Shown here in pieces: positions 1-16,334 of a stretch of DNA of 64,000 nucleotides. The position numbers and the translations under genes are program-made. Every line of letters starts with the position of its first letter. The stretch's first letter is position 1. The notes under the pieces are model-generated. The model had not been told where the DNA came from, ran no database searches, and was given only the letters and a program-made list of their open reading frames with translations. Source of the DNA: Thermoplasmatota archaeon (GTDB taxonomy: Archaea > Thermoplasmatota > Penumbrarchaeia > Penumbrarchaeales > Penumbrarchaeaceae); assembly GCA_029762535.1 (NCBI GenBank), contig JARVGK010000002.1, forward strand, positions 32,001 to 96,000, read 5' to 3'.

Positions 1-452
1 CAGTCACGATCCCAAGCAGCCTTAATCTTCATCATCAAAAGGACGGATCTTTTTGGAACGATGACCTTTTCTCCTTCGATGTCCCTTGTTTCCATTCGTC
101 CATCAATAATGCTCAAATTAAGGGTATCTCTCTTCCCCTCGAAGCAATCGGATCCTCTGTTAGCAATGTCTATGATGACCTTTCCGCTCGCTGTCGGTCT
201 GAATACCGAGTTCGTCGTCTCCGGGTCCGGATGATAGTCCCTGTGGTCTAGCAGATATTTCTTCAAGGCCTTCTTGGTCCTGCTGTTGGTGATGATATCT
301 ATATCGATGGACCCCCAGTAATCATTGTAGGAATGAACTGCCCAACCACCGACAAGGACCGTGATGGGATGTTCCAGTGACGACTCTCTTTCATTGACCC
401 ATGAGAAGATCGCTTTCAGTTCCTCGAGTGAATCACGTGCTATTTGCTCCAT
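1..452 (-). CDS. Nucleotidyltransferase, AbiEii/type IV TA toxin-like (partial, runs off the window start)
   Basis: Not in ORF track. Manual translation from ATG 452 gives MEQIARDSLEELK...VLVGGWAVHSY...SIDIDI, a GG...DxD NTase motif. Overlaps the stop of the 433-1425 gene. Confidence 0.75.
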   Translation of the reverse strand, partial: MEQIARDSLEELKAIFSWVNERESSLEHPITVLVGGWAVHSYNDYWGSIDIDIITNSRTKKALKKYLLDHRDYHPDPETTNSVFRPTASGKVIIDIANRGSDCFEGKRDTLNLSIIDGRMETRDIEGEKVIVPKRSVLLMMKIKAAWDRD

Positions 453-1425
453 AGGCCCTCACCATCTCGATGAGCAGGTCCCTTCCGGAATAACCAAGAC
501 CTGCAACATCCAGTAGGGTCTGCTCCCTTGAAGAGACCCTGACACCATCGTTCATTTCGGAACGGGAGATCACATCCCTGTCGGGTAGTAGAACCTTGAG
601 CCTAACACCGTCCTTCATATCTCCGGAAAACTCCCTCTTGATGATCTTCCTTGTCCTCTCATCATCCGCGTAGCAATGGATGAGGTCCCCTCTTCGTCCC
701 AGACCGAACTGGAGGGTCGCAGCCATATATGCGGTGATCACCACAGGATCGCCTCTCCTCTCGGACCAATCGGACAGGGTCCTTGCCAGGTCATGTGGCG
801 AATCGAACGATGTGTGTATCTCATAACTTTCCATGTCCTTCAGTGGTCTCTCCCATGCGGCGGCGTTCATGAGGTCCATGAGGTTCGTTAACTCCACCAG
901 ATCCCCCCTGCGTTCCACGAGCCCTCTGGATATGAGGTTTGTTATCACACCATGCGTCCACCCGTAGGAGATATCCTCGGAAATGGAAATGCTCCTGATG
1001 GAGCAGGGACCCTTCCTCATTAGGTGGATTATTATCCTCCACGCCTTCTCGGATGTCAGTTTTCCCCTCGGTCTCCTGGTTTCCTTTTCTATGAATATGT
1101 CATTAGGGAGGTCCAGTATCCCTATTTTCAAATGGTCTGCTCCTTTCCTTATCGAGTCCGGTACGATCTTTGATGCGACCATTATCTCATTTAAATTCTT
1201 ATCCAGTTCCCTAATGAGCAATAGCTGTGCAAGGCTGTCCCATGAAGGTTTGTGGAACAGCCCTATAACTATCCTTCTGTCTCCATCCCCGATCAAGAGG
1301 TCCGCCCTGACACTGAACTCACTGGAGATCCCCATGTCGAAATAAAACATTGATCGTATAGAAAGACCCAGTTCTTCCTTAAGGAACTCCTTCAGCTCTT
1401 CCTTGTCCTTCTCACTTATCTTCAT
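433..1425 (-). CDS. wHTH-containing AbiEi-like type IV TA antitoxin
   Basis: Central wHTH (SIRSISISEDISYGWTHGVITNL), C-terminal VSSREQTLLD motif, coupled to the NTase gene. Confidence 0.6.
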   Translation of the reverse strand: MKISEKDKEELKEFLKEELGLSIRSMFYFDMGISSEFSVRADLLIGDGDRRIVIGLFHKPSWDSLAQLLLIRELDKNLNEIMVASKIVPDSIRKGADHLKIGILDLPNDIFIEKETRRPRGKLTSEKAWRIIIHLMRKGPCSIRSISISEDISYGWTHGVITNLISRGLVERRGDLVELTNLMDLMNAAAWERPLKDMESYEIHTSFDSPHDLARTLSDWSERRGDPVVITAYMAATLQFGLGRRGDLIHCYADDERTRKIIKREFSGDMKDGVRLKVLLPDRDVISRSEMNDGVRVSSREQTLLDVAGLGYSGRDLLIEMVRAYGANST

Positions 1426-1459
1426 TATATATCGTTAATATGTGTATATTATATATAGT

Positions 1460-1515
1460 TATCAGTGATATAGATATCTGTTAATAGCGATATATTTGAA
1501 GGTCTATCAGTGATA
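1460..1515. promoter_or_regulatory. Two copies of palindrome TATCAGTGATA, putative autoregulatory operators
   Basis: 1460-1470 and 1505-1515, in the AT-rich region upstream of the 1425 start. Confidence 0.35.
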
Positions 1516-1937
1516 ATAGAATCCTACAGGTAGAGATGAGGAGGTTCAAAAGATGGGACATGGATATGTCGAAACGGTCCTATCGTTGTACTTTATGCGG
1601 ATCCCCCTCTTAGGTAAGGAGAAGCCTCCTCCTTCTGATCGAAGGCGGGATCCCCTCTCCGTCGGGAGAGGGCGGAGGGGGATAAAAGATGGATCCTCGT
1701 TCATGGTGGGAAAAAGCACCGTTAATTGCGTGAGAGAATGTGTGCTTTTTTTTTTCGATCGATCCCCTTTCTCCTTGATGCGAATTCACAGGTTTCGATG
1801 AATGTTGTTAAACCGCTCATCCTACCCCACATAACACTCTCCCTCGAGTATTCCATCCACTGATGTAAAAGTTGCCCACCTGTGGGAAAAATCAGAGTGC
1901 AGGCCCCCTCAAGGATGGTTTGCCGGGGTCGAACTCT

Positions 1938-1970
1938 ATAATTTGTGTAACTTATTAATACATAAATTGT
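1938..1970. promoter_or_regulatory. Imperfect inverted repeat, putative AbiEi operator/promoter
   Basis: ATAATTTGTGTA-N9-TACATAAATTGT just upstream of ATG 1984. Confidence 0.4.
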
Positions 1971-1983
1971 ATTATATGATTAC

Positions 1984-2712
1984 ATGAAAAATATATCCAA
2001 GCGCGAATACCAGATCATGGAGGAGATACGAAGCAGGGGCCTTACCATATTCACGCCGCTGCAGATCCGAAGGTTCCTGCATCTATCCGATCACCATACC
2101 AATCGGCTCCTTGCCAGGATGGTGGACAAGGACCTGATAAGAAGGGTCGAGAACGGAAAGTACATTCTATCCCGGGAAGCGGATGAAAAGGACGTTTACG
2201 AACTAGTGACCAATCTGATATCCCCCAGCTATCTTTCGCTGTGGAGCGCCCTGCACTTCCACGGTATGACCGAACAGGTACCGAGCAGGGTCTACGTATC
2301 GACCACCAGAAGGAAGGCTCACTTGATGCTCCAGGGAAGGGAGATCGTCTTCGTGACCATCGCGAATCAACACTTCTTCGGCTATGAGAGGGTAGGCACT
2401 GTGGTCGTCTCGGACAGGGAGAAGACCTTGCTGGATTGTCTGAGGCATATGGATAAGGCCGGTGGTCCGTCGCATATCTTCGGGTCCATACCGGATGACC
2501 TGGACCTCGACAGATTGCTGGAGTACTGCAGATCGATGGGCACATCTTCCGTGGTATCAAGGCTTGGATACATGTTGGACCTGAAAGGTATCGTTCACCG
2601 GAGGGACGATCTCAGGTCGCTTGTGACCTCCTACTCCAAGCTGGACCCGCATAGAGGGACAACGAACCTGGACCGTTACTGGAAGCTCTACAGGAACAGG
2701 GTGATGGAATGA
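1984..2712 (+). CDS. abiEi: Type IV TA antitoxin, AbiEi family
   Basis: N-terminal wHTH, YLSLWSALHFHGMTEQVP and SDREKTLLD motifs; ATGA overlap with toxin. Confidence 0.85.
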   Translation: MKNISKREYQIMEEIRSRGLTIFTPLQIRRFLHLSDHHTNRLLARMVDKDLIRRVENGKYILSREADEKDVYELVTNLISPSYLSLWSALHFHGMTEQVPSRVYVSTTRRKAHLMLQGREIVFVTIANQHFFGYERVGTVVVSDREKTLLDCLRHMDKAGGPSHIFGSIPDDLDLDRLLEYCRSMGTSSVVSRLGYMLDLKGIVHRRDDLRSLVTSYSKLDPHRGTTNLDRYWKLYRNRVME

Positions 2713-3473
2713 TCACAAGGGCTCAATTGAGGGAACTGCACGGGGGTGACCTCCCGCTGCACATCCTTGAACAGGACTATGTCCAATCCCTGTTCCTTAT
2801 GGAACTGTATGGCAGGGACGACCATATCGTGTTCAAGGGCGGGACCTTCATAAAACACGCATACGGACTTGACAGGTTCTCTGAGGACCTGGATTTCACA
2901 CTCCGGGATGAGTTCGATATCGTGAAGGTCATCGATCAGGCTGCAAAAAGGCTGGACAGATATGGTATCACCGCAGAGGTAGAGGACCTTACCCGGGGCA
3001 GACCGTCCATCAATGCACGACTGAGATATCGCGGACCGTTGTACAACGGTACTCCAAGGTCGATAGGTACCATAAGGATAGAGGTGTCAAGGCGGGATGA
3101 TATCATCCTTGCTCCGGTCTGGACAAGGCTCTTCTTCAAATATCCCGAAACGGCCGTCGTCAACGTTCTTTCTTTGAGAAAGGAAGAGGTCCTTGCCGAT
3201 AAGGTAAGAGCGCTCAGCACAAGGTCCAAGGGTCGCGATCTCTACGATGTCTGGTTCCTCCTGAACCAGGGGGCCGTCCCGGACCGAGAGCTCTTTGTTC
3301 GAAAGATGCAAGTTGTCGAGAAGGAACCCGTGGTCAGCATTGGAATTTCCGAAGAGGACTGGAAATATGACCTGAAGAACATACTCGTGAGACCCCCGGA
3401 CCTCTCCATGGTCCTTGACAGGGTCAGAGGCGAACTTACTGCCAGAGGGTTCGATGTCATATCGGATCCCTGA
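2709..3473 (+). CDS. abiEii: Type IV TA toxin, AbiEii/AbiGii nucleotidyltransferase
   Basis: FKGGT...RFSEDLDF and K..AL.TR.KGRDLYD motifs. Confidence 0.9.
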   Translation: MITRAQLRELHGGDLPLHILEQDYVQSLFLMELYGRDDHIVFKGGTFIKHAYGLDRFSEDLDFTLRDEFDIVKVIDQAAKRLDRYGITAEVEDLTRGRPSINARLRYRGPLYNGTPRSIGTIRIEVSRRDDIILAPVWTRLFFKYPETAVVNVLSLRKEEVLADKVRALSTRSKGRDLYDVWFLLNQGAVPDRELFVRKMQVVEKEPVVSIGISEEDWKYDLKNILVRPPDLSMVLDRVRGELTARGFDVISDP

Positions 3474-3533
3474 GATGATGAACAGAGGACCCATTCTCAA
3501 ACCAAGCCCCCATGGGCCGGTGGCCCGTCATCC

Positions 3534-3824
3534 ATGAGTGATCTATTCCTTGATATTACGAGCCTCATCATATCTTTGGCAGACATCAGGAAGACCCTCT
3601 CATCCCATAAGCCAGTCCTTGAAAAGGACTATGGTGTGAAGAAAATTGGGATATTCGGGTCATACGCACATGGAACTCATACAGAAAGATCGGACATCGA
3701 CATCCTCGTCGAGCTCAACCGGACCCCTGGCAGGGAACTGATGGACCTGAAATTATATCTAGAGGAGATCCTTGGCAAGGAGGTCGATCTCGTCACGGTC
3801 GCCGCCCTCAGGCCCAAGCTTTGA
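3534..3824 (+). CDS. Minimal nucleotidyltransferase (MNT), orphan with no adjacent HEPN
   Basis: GIFGSYAHG...SDIDILVE...VDLV. Confidence 0.8.
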   Translation: MSDLFLDITSLIISLADIRKTLSSHKPVLEKDYGVKKIGIFGSYAHGTHTERSDIDILVELNRTPGRELMDLKLYLEEILGKEVDLVTVAALRPKL

Positions 3825-4226
3825 GACTAACCCTGACGATCTTCAAAGCTCAAGCCCCCTGGATATCACATTTCTCAGGTTGGGGTTAGGGTTGAAGATC
3901 CAGGTGATCCCATCCACTGTGAAAACAATCTTGTTGCTCATGAGGGTTTTCATAGTTTTTGACAGTAGTTGGTCTTCTCTAAAAAGATGGGATCTGTGTC
4001 GGTTCTCCGATCCCCCTTCGATATCCTACCCCGCATTTTGTTCGTAGGCACACAGCATTCACATCGTTCCACTACCGCATCTCCCTCTTTACGGAAACGC
4101 TTCACCCGGAGCCCTTCCGGCCTGCTCGGCGCCCGTAATTCTAAGCGGTATGAGCATCAGAACCTCGGCTATCATCGAAGGTTTATCGTCCCGTTCTTCT
4201 ACCCTATCCAGTATAGCAAAACGGAA

Positions 4227-4565
4227 TCATAGAACTTCCATTAATGATTCGATAGAAGTTAACAATAGCGGGATATCCTTATTAACCGTTTCATGAACTA
4301 TAGAATAATCCACATCCATGTATCCGTGGACCAATCGATTCCTCAGTCCTGCCATTTTCTTCCATGGGATCTCAGGATGTTCGATCTTCAATTCCGGTGA
4401 AACATTCATCTATGCCTCACCAATTACTTCAAGGAGTTTGAGCAATGCGTATCTTTGCATCTTGTCAGCTCTCATCTCATCTAATGAGGATCCACCCATG
4501 ATCTCGATCGCTTCGAGACATGAATCTCTAATATGAGCCAAGAAAACCTTGTCATCACGAAGCAT
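4227..4565 (-). pseudogene. HEPN/DUF86 (HepT-like) RNase with in-frame TAG at 4410-4412
   Basis: MLRDDKVFLAHIRDS...EVIGEA*MNVSPE...LRNRLVHGY (RxxxxH); both halves in the same frame. Confidence 0.8.
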
Positions 4566-4863
4566 ACTGGATCACGGCCTTATTCATTACCTCTTTTCTG
4601 AAGTACCGACTTAGGTCAGCCGGGGTTCTGACGTCAACTTTTCTTCCACCATACAATTGGGATAAATTCTCCTCGATGTCGAAAAGTTCAAAGTAGCCGA
4701 TCTTTCGTCCTTCCTCGAACTCAACTAGAACATCAATATCCGAATCCGGACCAAAATCATCGCGAAGGATCGATCCGAACAAAGAAAGTTTCCGAATTCC
4801 ATTTTTCTTACAGAATGAAGCGATAATGTTCTTATCGATCGATATCCCGTGGAATTTGGCCAT
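4555..4863 (-). CDS. MNT antitoxin
   Basis: LFGSILRDDFGPDSDIDVLVEF; likely start MAKFHG after CAGGTGG SD. Confidence 0.85.
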   Translation of the reverse strand: MAKFHGISIDKNIIASFCKKNGIRKLSLFGSILRDDFGPDSDIDVLVEFEEGRKIGYFELFDIEENLSQLYGGRKVDVRTPADLSRYFRKEVMNKAVIQYAS

Positions 4864-5127
4864 CTTTACCACCTGACGTTGGGTAGAAATATTGATACAA
4901 ATAAATAAGTTTAACTGTTTTTTAAGTATAGTCCCCGGTATACATATCATCCCGAACCTCGGCTATCTTAGAAGGTTTATTGTCCCGTTCTTCTATCCTA
5001 TCCAGTATAGCAAAACGGAATCATAAACCTTCGTACCTGGCCGCAGGCCAGCTACCAGAAAAATCACCTCAATCCGCCACTTCATATCACCTGACTCCAG
5101 TCAAAAACAAAAGTCAGGTGATCTCAG

Positions 5128-5454: not shown

Positions 5455-5612
5455 TCGATATTACTTTATTCGGTTCTTTCTCGCCCCCTTACTTCCTCAT
5501 CGGCAATTCACAATCCTCGCCTCATGGTCCTGAAGTACCACCAGGAGCCCTACCCTTACTCCTTTTCGGCTGCGGGATTCTTACCACTTCGTCGTACTCC
5601 CAACCCCAACTA

Positions 5613-5691
5613 CCGCATTACATTCGCAGGCTCATTACATTGACCACGTTACACTTCCCCATCTTCCTGAAGTACGTAGTCAGTCGATGAG
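5613..5691. repeat. 79-bp conserved block, copy 1 (also 9609-9687, 12597-12675)
   Basis: ccgcattacattcgcaggctcattacattgacc...ctgaagtacgtagtcagtcgatgag, near-identical in three places. Confidence 0.9.
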
Positions 5692-5716
5692 ACGGAGGTT
5701 AGGAAAGGTTGTTAGA

Positions 5717-6244
5717 TTATTTTATTAAATTCATTAATTCATTAATATTAATTTTCTTAAATAATATTTCACCTAATCCTGGATCTATATTTAATTTTTT
5801 CACATCAACATTTGTTAATCTCATTTTTGGTTTCTTTATTATGTTAAATATTTCATTTTTTAAGGTTTTTGATAAAGCTGGAATAATTATATATGAATTA
5901 TTATTATCAATCATTATTAACATATATTGTTTTGTATATGAATTTAATTCATTGTAATATATTTTTTTAATATTACTTGGATCAATACGTATTTTATTAA
6001 AAATAAAACTGAATATAATATTTTTGTTTATAGATAATTTTATTGGTATTTTTATTAATGCATATAAAATATATATCAATCCAATTGATGATAATATATT
6101 GAGTAAATATAATGTGAACAATAAATCATCAAGTAAATTATCTATTAAAAAGAAAATAATGGCAAAACAATTTATAATTAATAATGATAAAAAACTCAAT
6201 AATAATCCGTAAAAATAATAATTATTTATTATTTTAAATTTCAT
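5717..6244 (-). CDS. AT-rich membrane protein, putative immunity protein 1
   Basis: Two N-terminal TM segments; ATGA overlap with the upstream large ORF. Confidence 0.55.
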   Translation of the reverse strand: MKFKIINNYYFYGLLLSFLSLLIINCFAIIFFLIDNLLDDLLFTLYLLNILSSIGLIYILYALIKIPIKLSINKNIIFSFIFNKIRIDPSNIKKIYYNELNSYTKQYMLIMIDNNNSYIIIPALSKTLKNEIFNIIKKPKMRLTNVDVKKLNIDPGLGEILFKKININELMNLIK

Positions 6245-8733
6245 TCTTTCAACTCCGTTGCATGAATTACAAAAGAAAGTTCACCTATACCTTTGTAAGG
6301 ACTATTATTCTCTCCTTTAATAGTATAAATTCCATAACCAGAAAAATAAGCTCCTCCTTCGTCATAGATTATGCAATTTTTTGGATTTAATAATTCACCT
6401 TCATCAATTTCTCCATTTTCATTATAATCCAAATACACTTTATTGTTTATTATATCAAAAATTATAAATCCAATTGGAGTACCCGATGAAGGAGATATAT
6501 CTATAAAATCATCGTTCTCATCTTCATCAACAAGGTTAAAACAATCTTTATCGACAATCCATATTCTTAATTCAATAGTATCTAAACAGGTATATAACTT
6601 TGGAGGTTGTTTACTATTTTCATCCCAATCACGTAATGACCAAGTGTGTATATAGTCATATTTTATATTAGGATTCATGAATTGATTAGTAATAATTGGA
6701 AGCCAGGTATATACACTCATATATATTGCTGGATCAGGCCTTATTAAATTGCCATCAATCCAAGATGCCTTATCAAATTCATTATTTTTTAAAAGAGAAG
6801 TTTTATGTTTGTATTGTACTAAATCAATACAAACTTCATAATTATAATCGTAATCATTTTCGAAAGATATCGAAGTTGACCGAATCCTATTGTAGTTCCT
6901 TTTTCTTTCTTCAACAAAGTGTGTTTCGTATCTTACAATAAAAATTATTGCATCTATCAACCATGGAATTGCTCCAACACACCATGCGATCGCAGCGAAT
7001 GGTGATAATACCTTATCAACACCGAAGAATATTGAAATAGCCATACAAGTCGCACTTGCTATATATACAATTCCAGCCCAGGTTTTTTGTTTCAATTTTA
7101 AGTTCCAATCATCATCTTCAATTAAAAACCCATATAACCATATTCCTGCTCCTATGCAAGTTAATATAAAAGAAATAATTGAACAAATTTGTGTACCAAG
7201 TGTAGCACCACCACCAGTGATTACTGCTTCACCTCCTAGTTGTGTGGCCATACCTAATAATGAAAATACGAAACCTAAACAATTTTGTAATGCCTTATAT
7301 AATAAATATATTATACCGTAAATATCAATAATATCCTCAATATTAATTCCTTTTGTAGATTCATAAATATCAACCCCAAAAAGCTTATCGGTTAAATTAT
7401 CAATGGTGAAATAATTTGAATAGTCCTCCATGAAATCTAAATAATTAGTAAAACTAACATTTGTTTCAATATTAAATAAATCAATCAGAGTTTTAAATAA
7501 TAATTCCATTATGATATAATATAAGTCAGATACTATAGATGAAAATTGACTAATATATTTATTAATGTTAATAAATATTGGAATTAAAATTTTTGCAGGA
7601 GAAAAAATATTCAATAATATTGAGTTTAATTTTTCCTGAACATTATCAGATAATTCTTCAGAAATGGAAATTATCATAAACAAATTGCATAGTTCAGGAA
7701 TATGTGTTGTTATACATTCTTTAATTTCGATAAATGAGGATGTTACGACACCTTCAATATAATTTATTATAACTTTCAAACCGTCGATTATTCTTAATAT
7801 TACTTTATTTAACAATTTTAACGGACCAATAAAATTATTAATAATTATATCAGCTATACTTGGTAGTTCTTTATGATTATATCCAATATTATCATTCCTA
7901 TCCATTGCTGTTAGGTTGATATTAAATCCTTCCAAAATAGCAGATTTAAATTTTTCCCAGCTATTTATTGACCATTCAAATGAGTAACTAACATTTGTTA
8001 AATCATTACAATAAATGGTTTGGTCTTCTAATGAAGTGATGTCAACATTTATAAATCTTATACCAAAAAGATCTTTTACACCTACCTCGAATATTATTTT
8101 AAATCCACCATCTGGTATCTTTAACATTCCAAGATTGCAATATTGCACCTCATAGAATGGATTAAATTGCCAAATTTCTGGTGGAGTTCCATCAATACCT
8201 GTTGCAGATGAATTGAATCCCCCCATTAACTCTTGGCTGTCTGTTATTCCATCTTCATCGGTATCATTTTTATTAGGATCTGTTAAATTGCAAAATTCTT
8301 GATAATCATTTAAACCATCATAATCTGTATCATAAATCAATGGATTAGAATTTACATAATAATAAGAGTATTGTTCAAAAGTAGCCTCATATATAATTAA
8401 AACCCTCCATCCAATAATTTCTTTTTTATCCGAAAGTCCATCCCCATCAGTATCAAATAAAATTGCACTCGTTTCAGATCCATCTCTTATTCCATTTCCG
8501 TTCAGATCCTCTTCGTTGTCGGGGATCCCGTCTCTGTCTGAATCTTTCGAGAGCGGGTTATATCCCCATTGGATTTCCGCAGAATCATTGAATCCGTCAC
8601 TGTCAGTATCGTTTGAATTCGGATCCGTCTCTGTCCAGATCTCATTATTTGAGTATATTCCGTCTCCATTGTCTCCGTCTATTCTTCCATTCCTATTACG
8701 ATCTTCTATTCCATCTTTTATTGTGTCTTTCAT
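6241..8733 (-). CDS. DxDxDG (thrombospondin type 3-like Ca-binding) repeat protein with variable TM C-terminus, module 1
   Basis: Homology to the other modules starts at MKDTIKDG (ATG 8733). DTDxDGxxD repeats, TGIDGxPP, INLTAMDRN.NIG, then TM helices and a unique C-terminal domain. Confidence 0.75.
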   Translation of the reverse strand: MKDTIKDGIEDRNRNGRIDGDNGDGIYSNNEIWTETDPNSNDTDSDGFNDSAEIQWGYNPLSKDSDRDGIPDNEEDLNGNGIRDGSETSAILFDTDGDGLSDKKEIIGWRVLIIYEATFEQYSYYYVNSNPLIYDTDYDGLNDYQEFCNLTDPNKNDTDEDGITDSQELMGGFNSSATGIDGTPPEIWQFNPFYEVQYCNLGMLKIPDGGFKIIFEVGVKDLFGIRFINVDITSLEDQTIYCNDLTNVSYSFEWSINSWEKFKSAILEGFNINLTAMDRNDNIGYNHKELPSIADIIINNFIGPLKLLNKVILRIIDGLKVIINYIEGVVTSSFIEIKECITTHIPELCNLFMIISISEELSDNVQEKLNSILLNIFSPAKILIPIFININKYISQFSSIVSDLYYIIMELLFKTLIDLFNIETNVSFTNYLDFMEDYSNYFTIDNLTDKLFGVDIYESTKGINIEDIIDIYGIIYLLYKALQNCLGFVFSLLGMATQLGGEAVITGGGATLGTQICSIISFILTCIGAGIWLYGFLIEDDDWNLKLKQKTWAGIVYIASATCMAISIFFGVDKVLSPFAAIAWCVGAIPWLIDAIIFIVRYETHFVEERKRNYNRIRSTSISFENDYDYNYEVCIDLVQYKHKTSLLKNNEFDKASWIDGNLIRPDPAIYMSVYTWLPIITNQFMNPNIKYDYIHTWSLRDWDENSKQPPKLYTCLDTIELRIWIVDKDCFNLVDEDENDDFIDISPSSGTPIGFIIFDIINNKVYLDYNENGEIDEGELLNPKNCIIYDEGGAYFSGYGIYTIKGENNSPYKGIGELSFVIHATELKE

Positions 8734-8782
8734 TTTTTTCGTTCTTTTTATGTAATAAAAAGTGCAGTAATTAATAAAAGAG

Positions 8783-9687
8783 GGAGGTGCATGCTTCGCA
8801 TGCAGATTCCCGAGGATCGTCTCAGCTGCCGCTTCGCACAGCAGGCCGATCCATCTCGGGTTTCTAAGACCCCCCCAGCCGCCTGCGCTGGCCTCCACCG
8901 CAGACCCCTCCGGCCTGCTCGGCGGCTCTAATTCCTTATCCGACATTTTCAGAACCTCGAATTTCTACAAAGGTCTATTGTTCGGTTTTCTTTCCATTAC
9001 CGTATAGGAAAACCGAATCATAAACCTTCGCATCCAGCAAAGCTGGATATACATTCCAGGTCCATCAATCCGACACTTGACATCACCTGACGTGCGATAA
9101 AAACAAAAGTCAGGTGATGAAAAGATGAAAAAGAAAAGAATAGAACCGTTGAGAATAAGAAGCGATTCCTTCAAACACTGGATCGTCAAATCCATTCTGC
9201 TCTTTGAACTCGAGCGAATGGGTCATAGACTCGAAGTAGAGTTGTATATCCCAGGGATCGGATACTGTGACGTTGTTGATCTCACTGTCGGGATCCAGTA
9301 CGAGATCGACGGGAACTGCTCCCCAAAGTACAGAAATGAGAAAGCAAAAAAGTATCTTCGACCTGGGATCCGGGACGTGATCGTGATCCCCATTCATAAG
9401 CTTCCGAAAGACATCAACGAGATCCGATCCTACGTTGCTCAATACCTCGTGTCGGATTGATCGATAATGCTTTATTCGGTTCTTTCTCGCCCCCTTGTAT
9501 CCTCGATGCGAATTCACAGGCTTCACTTCATGATTGTACACCGCTCACCCTACCCTATTCGCTTTCAGTTGCAGGACTCTTCGCATCTCGTCACACTCCC
9601 CCAAACCCCCGCATTACATTCGCAGGCTCATTACATTGACCACGTTACACTTTCCCATCTTCCTGAAGTACGTAGTCAGTCGATGAG
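8783..9687. repeat. Modular palindromic intergenic element carrying the 111-aa ORF
   Basis: Blocks shared with 4070-4231/4954-5691 and 12173-12675, e.g. tgcatgcttcgcatgca and ccgcagacccctccggcctgctcggcg. Confidence 0.8.
9125..9460 (+). CDS. Small putative PD-(D/E)xK-like nuclease, copy 2
   Basis: Near-identical to 5128-5454. Confidence 0.55.
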   Translation: MKKKRIEPLRIRSDSFKHWIVKSILLFELERMGHRLEVELYIPGIGYCDVVDLTVGIQYEIDGNCSPKYRNEKAKKYLRPGIRDVIVIPIHKLPKDINEIRSYVAQYLVSD

Positions 9688-9903
9688 CACGGGAGGGAGA
9701 AACGGATACTAGTTCATTCTTCTTTACTTACCCTAACCACAATCGACTGGCAGTTAAGAATTATGATACCATGTATGAGCCATTTGTTGCTATTTGCATT
9801 GGCCTCTATGTTCGATCAATAGGAGGAATCTTCGTTATAATTTTAGTAAAGGTTAATGGTCAAACTGAATTATAAGTAGGTGATCGTTATGCATGTTGAT
9901 AAA

Positions 9904-10134
9904 TTATTTTATTTTATGTTTCTTTTTTCCATTGAGACTATTAACTTTTATTTTCTCTAATATATTAGGCAATAAATAAATTATAATAGTAAATATTGAA
10001 ACTAATATACCTATGGCAAAAATAAAATGTTTTATATATATGAAAGCGAAAATAAAAACAAACATCGTTATAATAATTAATATTAATCCAGATAATTGTA
10101 AAATATCTTTATTAGTTTTATTTATATTACTCAT
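9904..10134 (-). CDS. Small two-TM protein, putative immunity protein 2
   Basis: ATG directly follows the stop of module 2; hydrophobic with a basic tail. Confidence 0.55.
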   Translation of the reverse strand: MSNINKTNKDILQLSGLILIIITMFVFIFAFIYIKHFIFAIGILVSIFTIIIYLLPNILEKIKVNSLNGKKKHKIK

Positions 10135-16121: not shown

Positions 16122-16334
16122 GTCATTGGGGGATGTCTCCTGCCATTTCTCGCCCTTGTCCCATCTGCCGTTCTGGTTCGTGTCACCCTTGATCTTGCCA
16201 TCACCATAGTGATAACCAAAGTAGTCGTCGTGTATGTAGTCCTCGCCTTTCTCATAGGATCCTCCCGGGATCCAATCTTCTCGCCGGAATGGCGAGAAGG
16301 AGGGAACCCTTTATAAAAGAACAAAAACAGAGAT

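Follow-up and report, generated by a model that had tools for sequence, protein, structure and literature searches.

The array described here lies in a 64,000-nt stretch of DNA, the window (G000:C25:32001-96000), from the genome of an uncultured, mud-dwelling Thermoplasmatota archaeon (assembly of 2.96 Mb in 102 contigs, 93% complete). Three tandem genes, g1, g2 and g3, share the end of a common trunk and run into different C-terminal domains (CTs), each followed tightly by a different small open reading frame (ORF) for a membrane protein. A preliminary description of this DNA had compared the layout with the orphan CT/immunity arrays of Rhs, contact-dependent inhibition (CDI) and MafB systems. 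The order of the genes along the minus strand is g3, a CT fragment, g2 and g1, with the following features (TM, transmembrane):

5717-6244, minus strand: small ORF of 175 aa with two TM segments, overlapping the g1 stop by ATGA
6241-8733, minus strand: g1, a short module of 830 aa with a four-TM CT and a soluble tail of ~230 aa, its CT type common to the relative P0025
9904-10134, minus strand: small ORF of 76 aa with one or two TM segments, at a 0-nt gap from the g2 stop
10135-12093, minus strand: g2, a short module of 652 aa with anchor, TSP3 repeats, beta-sandwich and an eight-TM CT
12633-12917, minus strand: g2-like CT fragment with two TM segments and an acidic loop, resembling the middle of the CTs of P0009, P0010 and P0024; by its sequence the remnant of a lost module
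13243-13491, minus strand: small ORF of 82 aa with two TM segments, 2 nt after the g3 stop; a candidate cognate partner or immunity protein of g3
13494-16121, open to ~16310, minus strand: g3, a 5'-truncated head gene with a remnant of a giant trunk, anchor, TSP3 repeats, beta-sandwich and a four-TM CT, its CT type common to the relative P0029

The part common to the three genes (~284 aa) consists of an anchor (DTIKDGIEDRNRNGRIDGDNGDG), TSP3 repeats and a beta-sandwich that begins at TGIDGxPP and ends at [ILV][TS]AxDxNxNxG, with trunk identities of 53-60%. At the DNA level the anchor is nearly identical, as first described (26 nt identical at 8705-8730 and 12065-12090, 96% at 15571-15596), and a 237-nt block (8471-8707, 11831-12067 and 15220-15456) is 70-90% identical. 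Both g1 and g2 start exactly at the anchor, and their start codons (ATG 8733 and ATG 12093) are homologous, with a 3360-nt offset equal to that of the repeats; the two ORFs stay open further back, to 8946 and 12156, respectively, and an AT-rich TATA-like sequence precedes each anchor ATG. The N-termini of all three genes are highly charged, and a hydrophobic segment is absent before residue 289, which bears out the earlier statement that they carry no signal peptide.

The DxDxDG repeats of g1, g2 and g3 match Pfam TSP3_bac (PF18884), g1 with 27.8 bits (cut-off 25) and the other two slightly below the cut-off; across the family TSP3_bac was matched in 20 of the 31 members, and the only other Pfam match was a weak one to the Binary_toxB calcium-binding domain. 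TSP3 calcium-binding repeats are typical of extracellular proteins. An AlphaFold2 (AF2) model of g2 reached a predicted local distance difference test (pLDDT) score of ~90 for residues 40-300 and was confident over the TSP3 repeats; in it the NxDxNGN motif falls in the final hairpin of the beta-sandwich, and a long helix begins at residue 292. Foldseek comparison of this model gave generic Ig-, PKD-, C2- and CARDB-type sandwiches only. Binary-toxin-B rows in the same comparison were weak, matched in the calcium-binding region and were not read as a link to toxins.

The boundary between trunk and CT is the last hairpin of the beta-sandwich (NITAxDxNGNxG) and not a known pre-toxin domain; Pfam models of pre-toxin demarcation domains matched none of the 31 family members at E<=0.01. 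Across this boundary the GC content falls from 0.34-0.44 in the trunk to 0.26-0.29 in the CTs and 0.15-0.19 in the small ORFs, compared with 0.48-0.50 in the spacers and ~0.55 in nearby core genes. By hydropathy the CTs of g1, g2 and g3 hold four, eight and four TM segments, respectively. Whole-CT identity among them is 22-23%, the level found between unrelated hydrophobic CTs, so that the complete divergence first reported holds for the CTs as wholes; it does not extend to their first ~150-200 residues, which are weakly colinear (g2-g3, 24% over 208 aa, E 7e-8). The CT frames of 369-546 codons contain no stops where 30-49 would be expected, and none of 1000 shuffles was open, so their openness is not due to chance. 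The small ORFs, 0-4 nt from their genes, are mutually dissimilar and gave no match to known immunity families, Pfam, NCBIfam, PADLOC or PDB sequences. The ORF at 5717-6244 has a homologue in genome G001, located behind the g1-type CT of P0025 (E 2e-7); a search with its 175-aa product found no word-sharing relatives.

The frame of g3 opens after a stop at ~16310. Since it aligns with residues ~1813-2311 of the giant protein P0125 and residues 44-363 of P0018 (tblastn), and the DNA upstream of 16310 consists only of hairpin repeats up to a Schlafen/AlbA_2 ATPase gene, g3 is a head gene that has lost its 5' part, as had been proposed. It carries stop-free, in-frame insertions of hairpin type (~15457-15570, 15594-15666, 15705-15756 and 15848-16013) that are missing from the aligned P0125 and P0018, and contigs of other metagenomes skip three of them (joints 15593>15667, 15704>15757 and 15847>16014). 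These palindromic inserts are reminiscent of in-frame palindromic elements such as the RPEs of Rickettsia. Similar inserts occur at equivalent positions in P0008, and palindromic (hairpin) elements also pile up in a block of ~700 bp upstream of g3 (16330-17000).

A giant parent gene and the exchange of C-terminal domains

Within one family the beta-sandwich domain was found in 7 of 24 genomes; a search of 13 further genomes of the class detected no copy. All database relatives carry Thermoplasmatota metagenome-assembled genome (MAG) labels. In one of the related genomes, G020, the trunk end terminates a frame of 2588 aa (P0125), and beyond a TAA and a frameshift upstream it is continued by frames of 888 and >3089 aa. 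The first frame of the gene opens with a charged stretch followed by 19 hydrophobic residues, a signal or signal anchor. The interruptions, at L031 9200-9270 and 11864-11866 (G020:C17), could represent sequencing errors, a pseudogene or three separate genes. The parent gene is followed by an overlapping 154-aa ORF with two TM segments and by a convergent, frameshifted homologue of the mini-nuclease gene X described below, and the drop in GC content from trunk to CT to small ORF is repeated.

A second array was observed in the host genome itself (C40:12000-22319, L038), where a giant TSP3 gene runs off the contig end. This gene ends in an AT-rich domain with HELGHxLGL (HExxH, zincin-like). Next come a 177-aa ORF, whose N-terminus is hydrophobic and lipoprotein-like, and a 5'-truncated duplicate with its own 174-aa ORF. 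The CTs of this array carry HExxH, and its GC gradient is the same as in the window array.

The relationship between trunk, CT and small ORF was examined in 19 complete modules drawn from the window, its relatives and 18 metagenome loci, 18 of them with a complete small ORF. The small ORF starts between -10 and +24 nt from the stop of its module in 17 of these 18, and the 18 modules represent ~16 CT types. Pairs of modules illustrate how identity is distributed:

L054/L059: trunk 91%, CT 26%
L055b/L060: trunk 84%, CT no match
L057/L059: trunk 69%, CT 44%, small ORF 57%

Furthermore, g3 and P0028 have trunks that are 69% identical and unrelated CTs, and the same CT type was found on trunks only 47-69% identical. 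The CT of g3 is 38% identical to that of P0029 over 375 aa; g1 and P0025 are 37% identical over ~540 aa of the CT and 47% in the trunk, and in the trunk tree they are not sisters (approximately unbiased (AU) test p 0.038). Trunk and CT thus have uncoupled histories, with CTs exchanged on a conserved trunk. Relatives of the g1 CT are rare: among 1.84 billion representatives only P0025 and five weak matches were found, and the four short matches examined are fragments of the g1 CT type. Some CTs are of another kind altogether, as in P0028, whose trunk is near that of g3 and whose CT has no TM segments; the ESM Atlas groups it with Peptidase_C39_2/C70 by features and predicted structure, and on this basis it looks papain-like (C39-like).

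Small ORFs co-vary with CT type: similar small ORFs were found in only 2 of 153 module pairs, the same two whose CTs are most alike (one of them g1 with P0025 of G001), and there were no similar small ORFs with dissimilar CTs (pair table of small ORF against CT, 2/1/0/150). The layout also recurs in other genomes and on metagenome contigs; two-module contigs (L052 and L055) carry orphan truncated modules as in the window, and among the collected loci short forms far outnumber long forms. Population data came from contig-level DNA runs of three metagenomes of sediment or volcano origin (X2, X3 and X5, belonging to two other studies), in which the summed contig depth was 30-120 over the spacers and the 5' trunk and 0-5 over the CTs of the host MAG. 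This contrast fits a population in which many relatives share the frame and carry other CTs.

Spacer elements, recombination handle and island setting

The spacers between modules proved to be conserved elements, here termed U and Y, with an optional small gene, X. The anchor segment is listed with them:

5479-5698: Y copy 1
9485-9694: Y copy 2
12470-12682: Y copy 3
8775-8924: U copy 1, upstream of g1
12165-12318: U copy 2, directly upstream of g2
8881-8923 and 12270-12312: U core (also L041 1114-1155 and 4287-4328)
5128-5454, plus strand: X copy 1, 108 aa, 89% identical to copy 2
9125-9460, plus strand: X copy 2, 111 aa, a PD-(D/E)xK-like mini-nuclease gene convergent with the module
8471-8733, minus strand: homogenised 5' anchor segment of g1, with counterparts at 11831-12093 (g2) and 15220-15456 plus 15571-15599 (g3)

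Within the anchor segment identity between the copies changes partner along its length: over nt 1-60 g1 equals g2 (100%), over nt 61-120 g2 resembles g3 (95%), and over nt 121-240 g1 resembles g3 (88-95%, compared with 55-63% for g1-g2), while past ~300 nt all pairs fall to 50-65%. This mosaic of the first ~240 nt is a gene-conversion signature, and the homogenised 5' anchor is as expected of a recombination handle. At the other end, Y lies directly after each small ORF, and U lies upstream of the next module. CT and small ORF are therefore flanked on both sides by conserved DNA, which makes exchange by homologous recombination possible. Together with the swapping of CTs independently of the trunk, these findings agree with the original proposal that CTs are reloaded by recombination.

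The order module-Y-(X)-U-module recurs in genomes G003 and G005 and in at least seven independent metagenome contigs. Homologues of X occupy the same position in G020, G003 and metagenome loci; X is found in some spacers and not in others, resembling a small selfish or homing-type insert. A 13-nt inverted repeat, read directly in the sequence, brackets it. Its AF2 model (pLDDT 78) has an alpha-beta-beta-beta-alpha-beta fold, for which the top Foldseek matches were mostly nucleases of the restriction-endonuclease/PD-(D/E)xK fold, all weak (best E 3e-3); X gave no Pfam, NCBIfam, PADLOC or PDB-sequence match.

The GC-rich core of U (~45 nt) is nearly invariant across three genera of the Thermoplasmatota family. 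In another MAG it also adjoins unrelated genes (glycosyltransferases and others), so U is not cassette-specific, and its core may be a dispersed functional element such as an RNA or a protein-binding site. The frame of U is not the same in its different copies, which marks U as non-coding. The idea that U is a dedicated cassette leader or ribozyme was set aside only provisionally: its core hardly varies in sequence, the proposed CTGCG/CGCAG stem shows no compensatory changes in G003 and G005, and the core stands beside unrelated genes. Y is conserved in sequence and has little predicted structure on the gene-sense strand; a structured RNA was rejected for it, as RNAalifold gave only a five-pair stem, with the gene-sense strand alone folded. 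Readings of the spacers as group II intron, integron attC or diversity-generating retroelement (DGR) had no sequence or Rfam support, no integrase search having been made. Rfam and tRNA scans of the window gave no match.

The array sits within a defence/toxin-antitoxin (TA) island (window 1-4950 and 17112-19942), in which TA modules (AbiE and HepT/MNT) are interspersed among array remnants that reach below position 5700:

3-1425: second AbiEii-like pair
1764-1827, strand unassigned: isolated Y fragment
1984-3473: AbiEii and partner
4227-4565: split HepT, with MNT at 4555-4950
17112-18485: Schlafen/AlbA_2-HATPase_c_4 ATPase with pAgo-associated-like PADLOC matches
19382-19942: MNT-winged helix-turn-helix (wHTH) protein
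C25:30454-30885 (L037 18454-18885), just before the window: lone 143-aa ORF with two TM segments, 17% GC

The lone ORF is flanked by two Y fragments (C25:30290-31223) and has no adjacent CT; from its sequence context it looks like an orphan partner or immunity gene. The first inventory, correct for the three genes and their small ORFs, had missed U, X, Y, the CT fragment at 12633-12917 and the remnants below 5700.

Such remnants raise the question of whether the array is simply debris, that is, partial tandem duplications of the 3' end of a giant adhesin drifting in a variable island with no cassette function. The truncated, insertion-riddled g3, the fragments of CT and spacer, the TA modules inserted in the island and the lack of a parent in the host genome would all suit such decay. 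The stop-free AT-rich CT frames speak against it, as do the recurrence of the modular order with conserved U and Y in many samples and the finding of the same CT types on different trunks, each with its matching small ORF; we regard simple decay as highly improbable.

Possible function and comparison with known systems

Taken together, the comparisons support well the view that the locus is a real polymorphic array of C-terminal cassettes with cognate partner genes, exchanged by recombination. For its function we infer, by analogy with known systems, that the CT/small-ORF pairs are toxin/immunity pairs, and the reading we favour, at slightly under one in two, is antagonism resembling that of polymorphic toxin systems (PTSs), with the window holding a cassette array, now decayed, of a polymorphic surface-protein system specific to the lineage. 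The intact form, as seen in G020, is a giant protein with an N-terminal hydrophobic signal or anchor, followed by a stalk of thousands of residues with beta-helix, FG-GAP-like and calcium-binding TSP3 parts. Its trunk ends in the anchor motif, five TSP3 repeats and the beta-sandwich with NITAxDxNGNxG. After these come the hypervariable CT and, coupled to it in translation, a small membrane ORF that depends on the CT type. In the window, g3 has lost its 5' part, g1 and g2 start at the anchor, and the CT fragment and the lone small ORF are remnants of other modules. With the homogenised anchor and U as 5' borders and Y as 3' border, homologous recombination can swap units of trunk end, CT and small ORF within and between genomes. 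By analogy, the CT would act on the membranes of neighbouring cells (or as a peptidase in some relatives), the small membrane protein would neutralise the cognate CT in the producer, and the short modules would serve mainly as a reservoir.

A number of results weigh against this picture. The CTs of the window have no Pfam, NCBIfam, PADLOC or PDB-sequence match, and models of toxin, pre-toxin (VENN, PT-TG, PT-HINT and Rhs), immunity or defence domains match neither the CTs nor the small ORFs; for the g2 CT there was no look-alike in the ESM Atlas, and its part of the AF2 model had low confidence. A full-length parent of the kind that had been foreseen does exist in the related genome G020, with its N-terminal hydrophobic signal, so the first objection anticipated, the lack of any such parent in this or related genomes, falls away; in the host assembly (93% complete), however, neither an intact parent nor another copy of the sandwich domain was found. 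The parent is possibly unassembled, or lost from view through a misjoin in the repeat block 16330-17000, where Logan unitigs break; a protein database search for longer forms found none (weak evidence), and a related-locus search of genome contigs with one protein gave no match. Co-variation of CT and small ORF is based on only two similar pairs. Joints between paralogous copies in contig-level DNA were weak, with sides of 20-34 nt, and were not counted as recombinants. The overall interpretation first put forward thus stands for the cassette layout, the parent in a relative and the swapping of CTs, and lacks any detected toxin, pre-toxin or immunity domain.

Also on this side are two hints that truncated forms are translated rather than silent: all hairpin inserts of g3 are in frame, and several relatives have an uninterrupted frame that runs from a conserved ATG near U, across AT-rich linkers, as far as the anchor. 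The short modules could be membrane proteins in their own right, expressed independently from a start of their own and with the TSP3/sandwich part in the cytoplasm, and not reserve cassettes; membrane-disrupting effectors with small antidotes in the defence island are one possibility. The anchor ATGs of g1 and g2 behind TATA-like sequence, the predominance of short forms and the AbiE, HepT/MNT and Schlafen/AlbA_2 ATPase neighbours would be in keeping with this. We nevertheless hold independent expression to be improbable: TSP3 repeats are, from established knowledge of the fold, typically extracellular, the same trunk end forms the C-terminal part of the giant signal-bearing protein of G020, the modules have no PADLOC match, U is non-coding, and the U core is also found beside unrelated genes.

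Finally, four to eight strongly hydrophobic helices directly follow the last beta-sandwich, at the very place where the other giant surface proteins of the host genome have a single plain TM anchor, so the CTs may simply anchor; as polytopic domains they would insert into the membrane of the producer itself. A variable anchor or self-recognition device, in which the polytopic CT forms an intramembrane complex with its small partner, would make the diversity a matter of kin recognition, adhesion or cell-fusion compatibility, or of escape from viruses or vesicles that exploit the CT, and not of killing. The TSP3 trunks resemble the Myxococcus cohesion and adhesion proteins CglD, MtsC and MtsD (below curated cut-offs), no toxin domain was detected, and VARTIG of Thermococcales is an example of a PTS-like layout that does not necessarily imply a toxin (PMC8416519). 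Against an anchor, the exposed part is not where variation lies, but the membrane-embedded part and the coupled downstream gene; soluble enzyme-like CTs without TM segments occur in relatives (C39-like in P0028, HExxH in C40), and the lone small ORF, which has no CT, is easier to explain as orphan immunity than as the partner of an anchor. We consider the anchor interpretation somewhat unlikely.

A fuller version of the PTS-like reading is distinctly unlikely as a whole: that contact- or membrane-exchange-dependent antagonism or kin discrimination is carried by cassettes of polytopic effector and immunity protein at the tip of a giant calcium-binding stalk, with U and Y as borders and X promoting exchange. 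If true, stalk-tip cassettes, U/Y borders and the X nuclease would form a built-in diversification apparatus with no described archaeal counterpart.

Measured against the generic definition of PTSs (Zhang et al. 2012), a candidate trafficking signal (the N-terminal hydrophobic segment) and a giant repeat trunk occur in G020, in a gene interrupted as assembled by a frameshift and a TAA, and are absent from the three window genes. CT exchange on a conserved trunk and orphan truncated modules are present, and a pre-toxin demarcation domain is lacking. Hints of a toxin domain come from the papain-like CT of one relative and the HExxH of the C40 CTs, and the small ORFs, as putative immunity genes, lie next to the CTs and co-vary with them in two similar pairs. 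The array is like the orphan arrays of Rhs, CDI (CdiA) and MafB in having a large exported protein, rich in repeats, whose trunk is conserved and whose C-terminus is hypervariable, a small gene that lies close behind it and co-varies with the C-terminus, a lower GC content of CT and partner, 5'-truncated downstream modules that keep trunk homology, and many CT types across strains. It differs from them in being archaeal, with a TSP3 stalk rather than YD, FHA or DUF1020 parts, and in having the end of a beta-sandwich as its boundary in place of VENN, PxxxxDPxGL, PT-TG or PT-HINT. The ~1 kb of homology that it retains has diverged too, apart from the homogenised first ~240 nt, most of its CTs are polytopic membrane domains, and it has conserved spacers U and Y and the optional mini-nuclease gene. 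The marks of Rhs/YD-repeat proteins (YD repeats, RHS core and PxxxxDPxGL end) had no Pfam match in family members, nor did those of CDI families (FHA and VENN), for which no genome search for CdiB was made. To our knowledge, two-partner secretion into an outer membrane is not to be expected in an archaeon.

Pore-forming and ionophoric toxins (CdiA-CT of E. coli EC93 with CdiI, pore-forming colicins with their immunity proteins, and Tse5 with Tsi5) combine a hydrophobic helical CT with a small protein of one to four TM segments whose gene follows at once; they differ in placing a short hydrophobic hairpin in a soluble domain, in contrast to the up to eight strong TM segments found here, and the array CTs gave no sequence or fold match. 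Silent-cassette loci such as pilE/pilS of Neisseria also consist of signal-less, 5'-truncated open frames, next to an expression locus or away from it, with a conserved end homogenised by gene conversion. The array cassettes, in contrast, carry their own coupled partner, and their variable part is membrane-embedded rather than exposed.

PTSs have been predicted in archaea by comparative genomics, and none had been characterised experimentally as of 2021 (PMC8416519). The closest archaeal likeness is VARTIG, in which a large surface protein carries an Ig-type domain, a conserved motif containing Gly-Asn beside it, and a hypervariable C-terminal region subject to recombination; the genes downstream vary, and the whole is organised like a PTS (PMC8416519). 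It belongs to another phylum and has another trunk (arCOG07710; compared by organisation), its variable part is the Ig domain itself, whereas here a membrane or helical CT follows the Ig-like domain, and no tandem truncated modules with spacers of their own have been described for it; within the arCOG set, its authors saw nothing comparable beyond Thermococcales (PMC8416519). A description of the trunk-end family was not found in the literature searched. The locus offers a compact, testable example in an uncultured sediment Thermoplasmatota, with a defined trunk end, ~16 CT types and their partners, a clear swap boundary and cassette borders. If the CT/small-ORF pairs are toxin and immunity proteins, archaea would have a new class of effectors that act on membranes, together with a new scaffold to deliver them; if not, the pairs would be hypervariable membrane anchors with dedicated partners, bearing on self-recognition in archaea. 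Either way, the orphan-cassette logic of Rhs and CDI systems exists in archaea, built from different parts.

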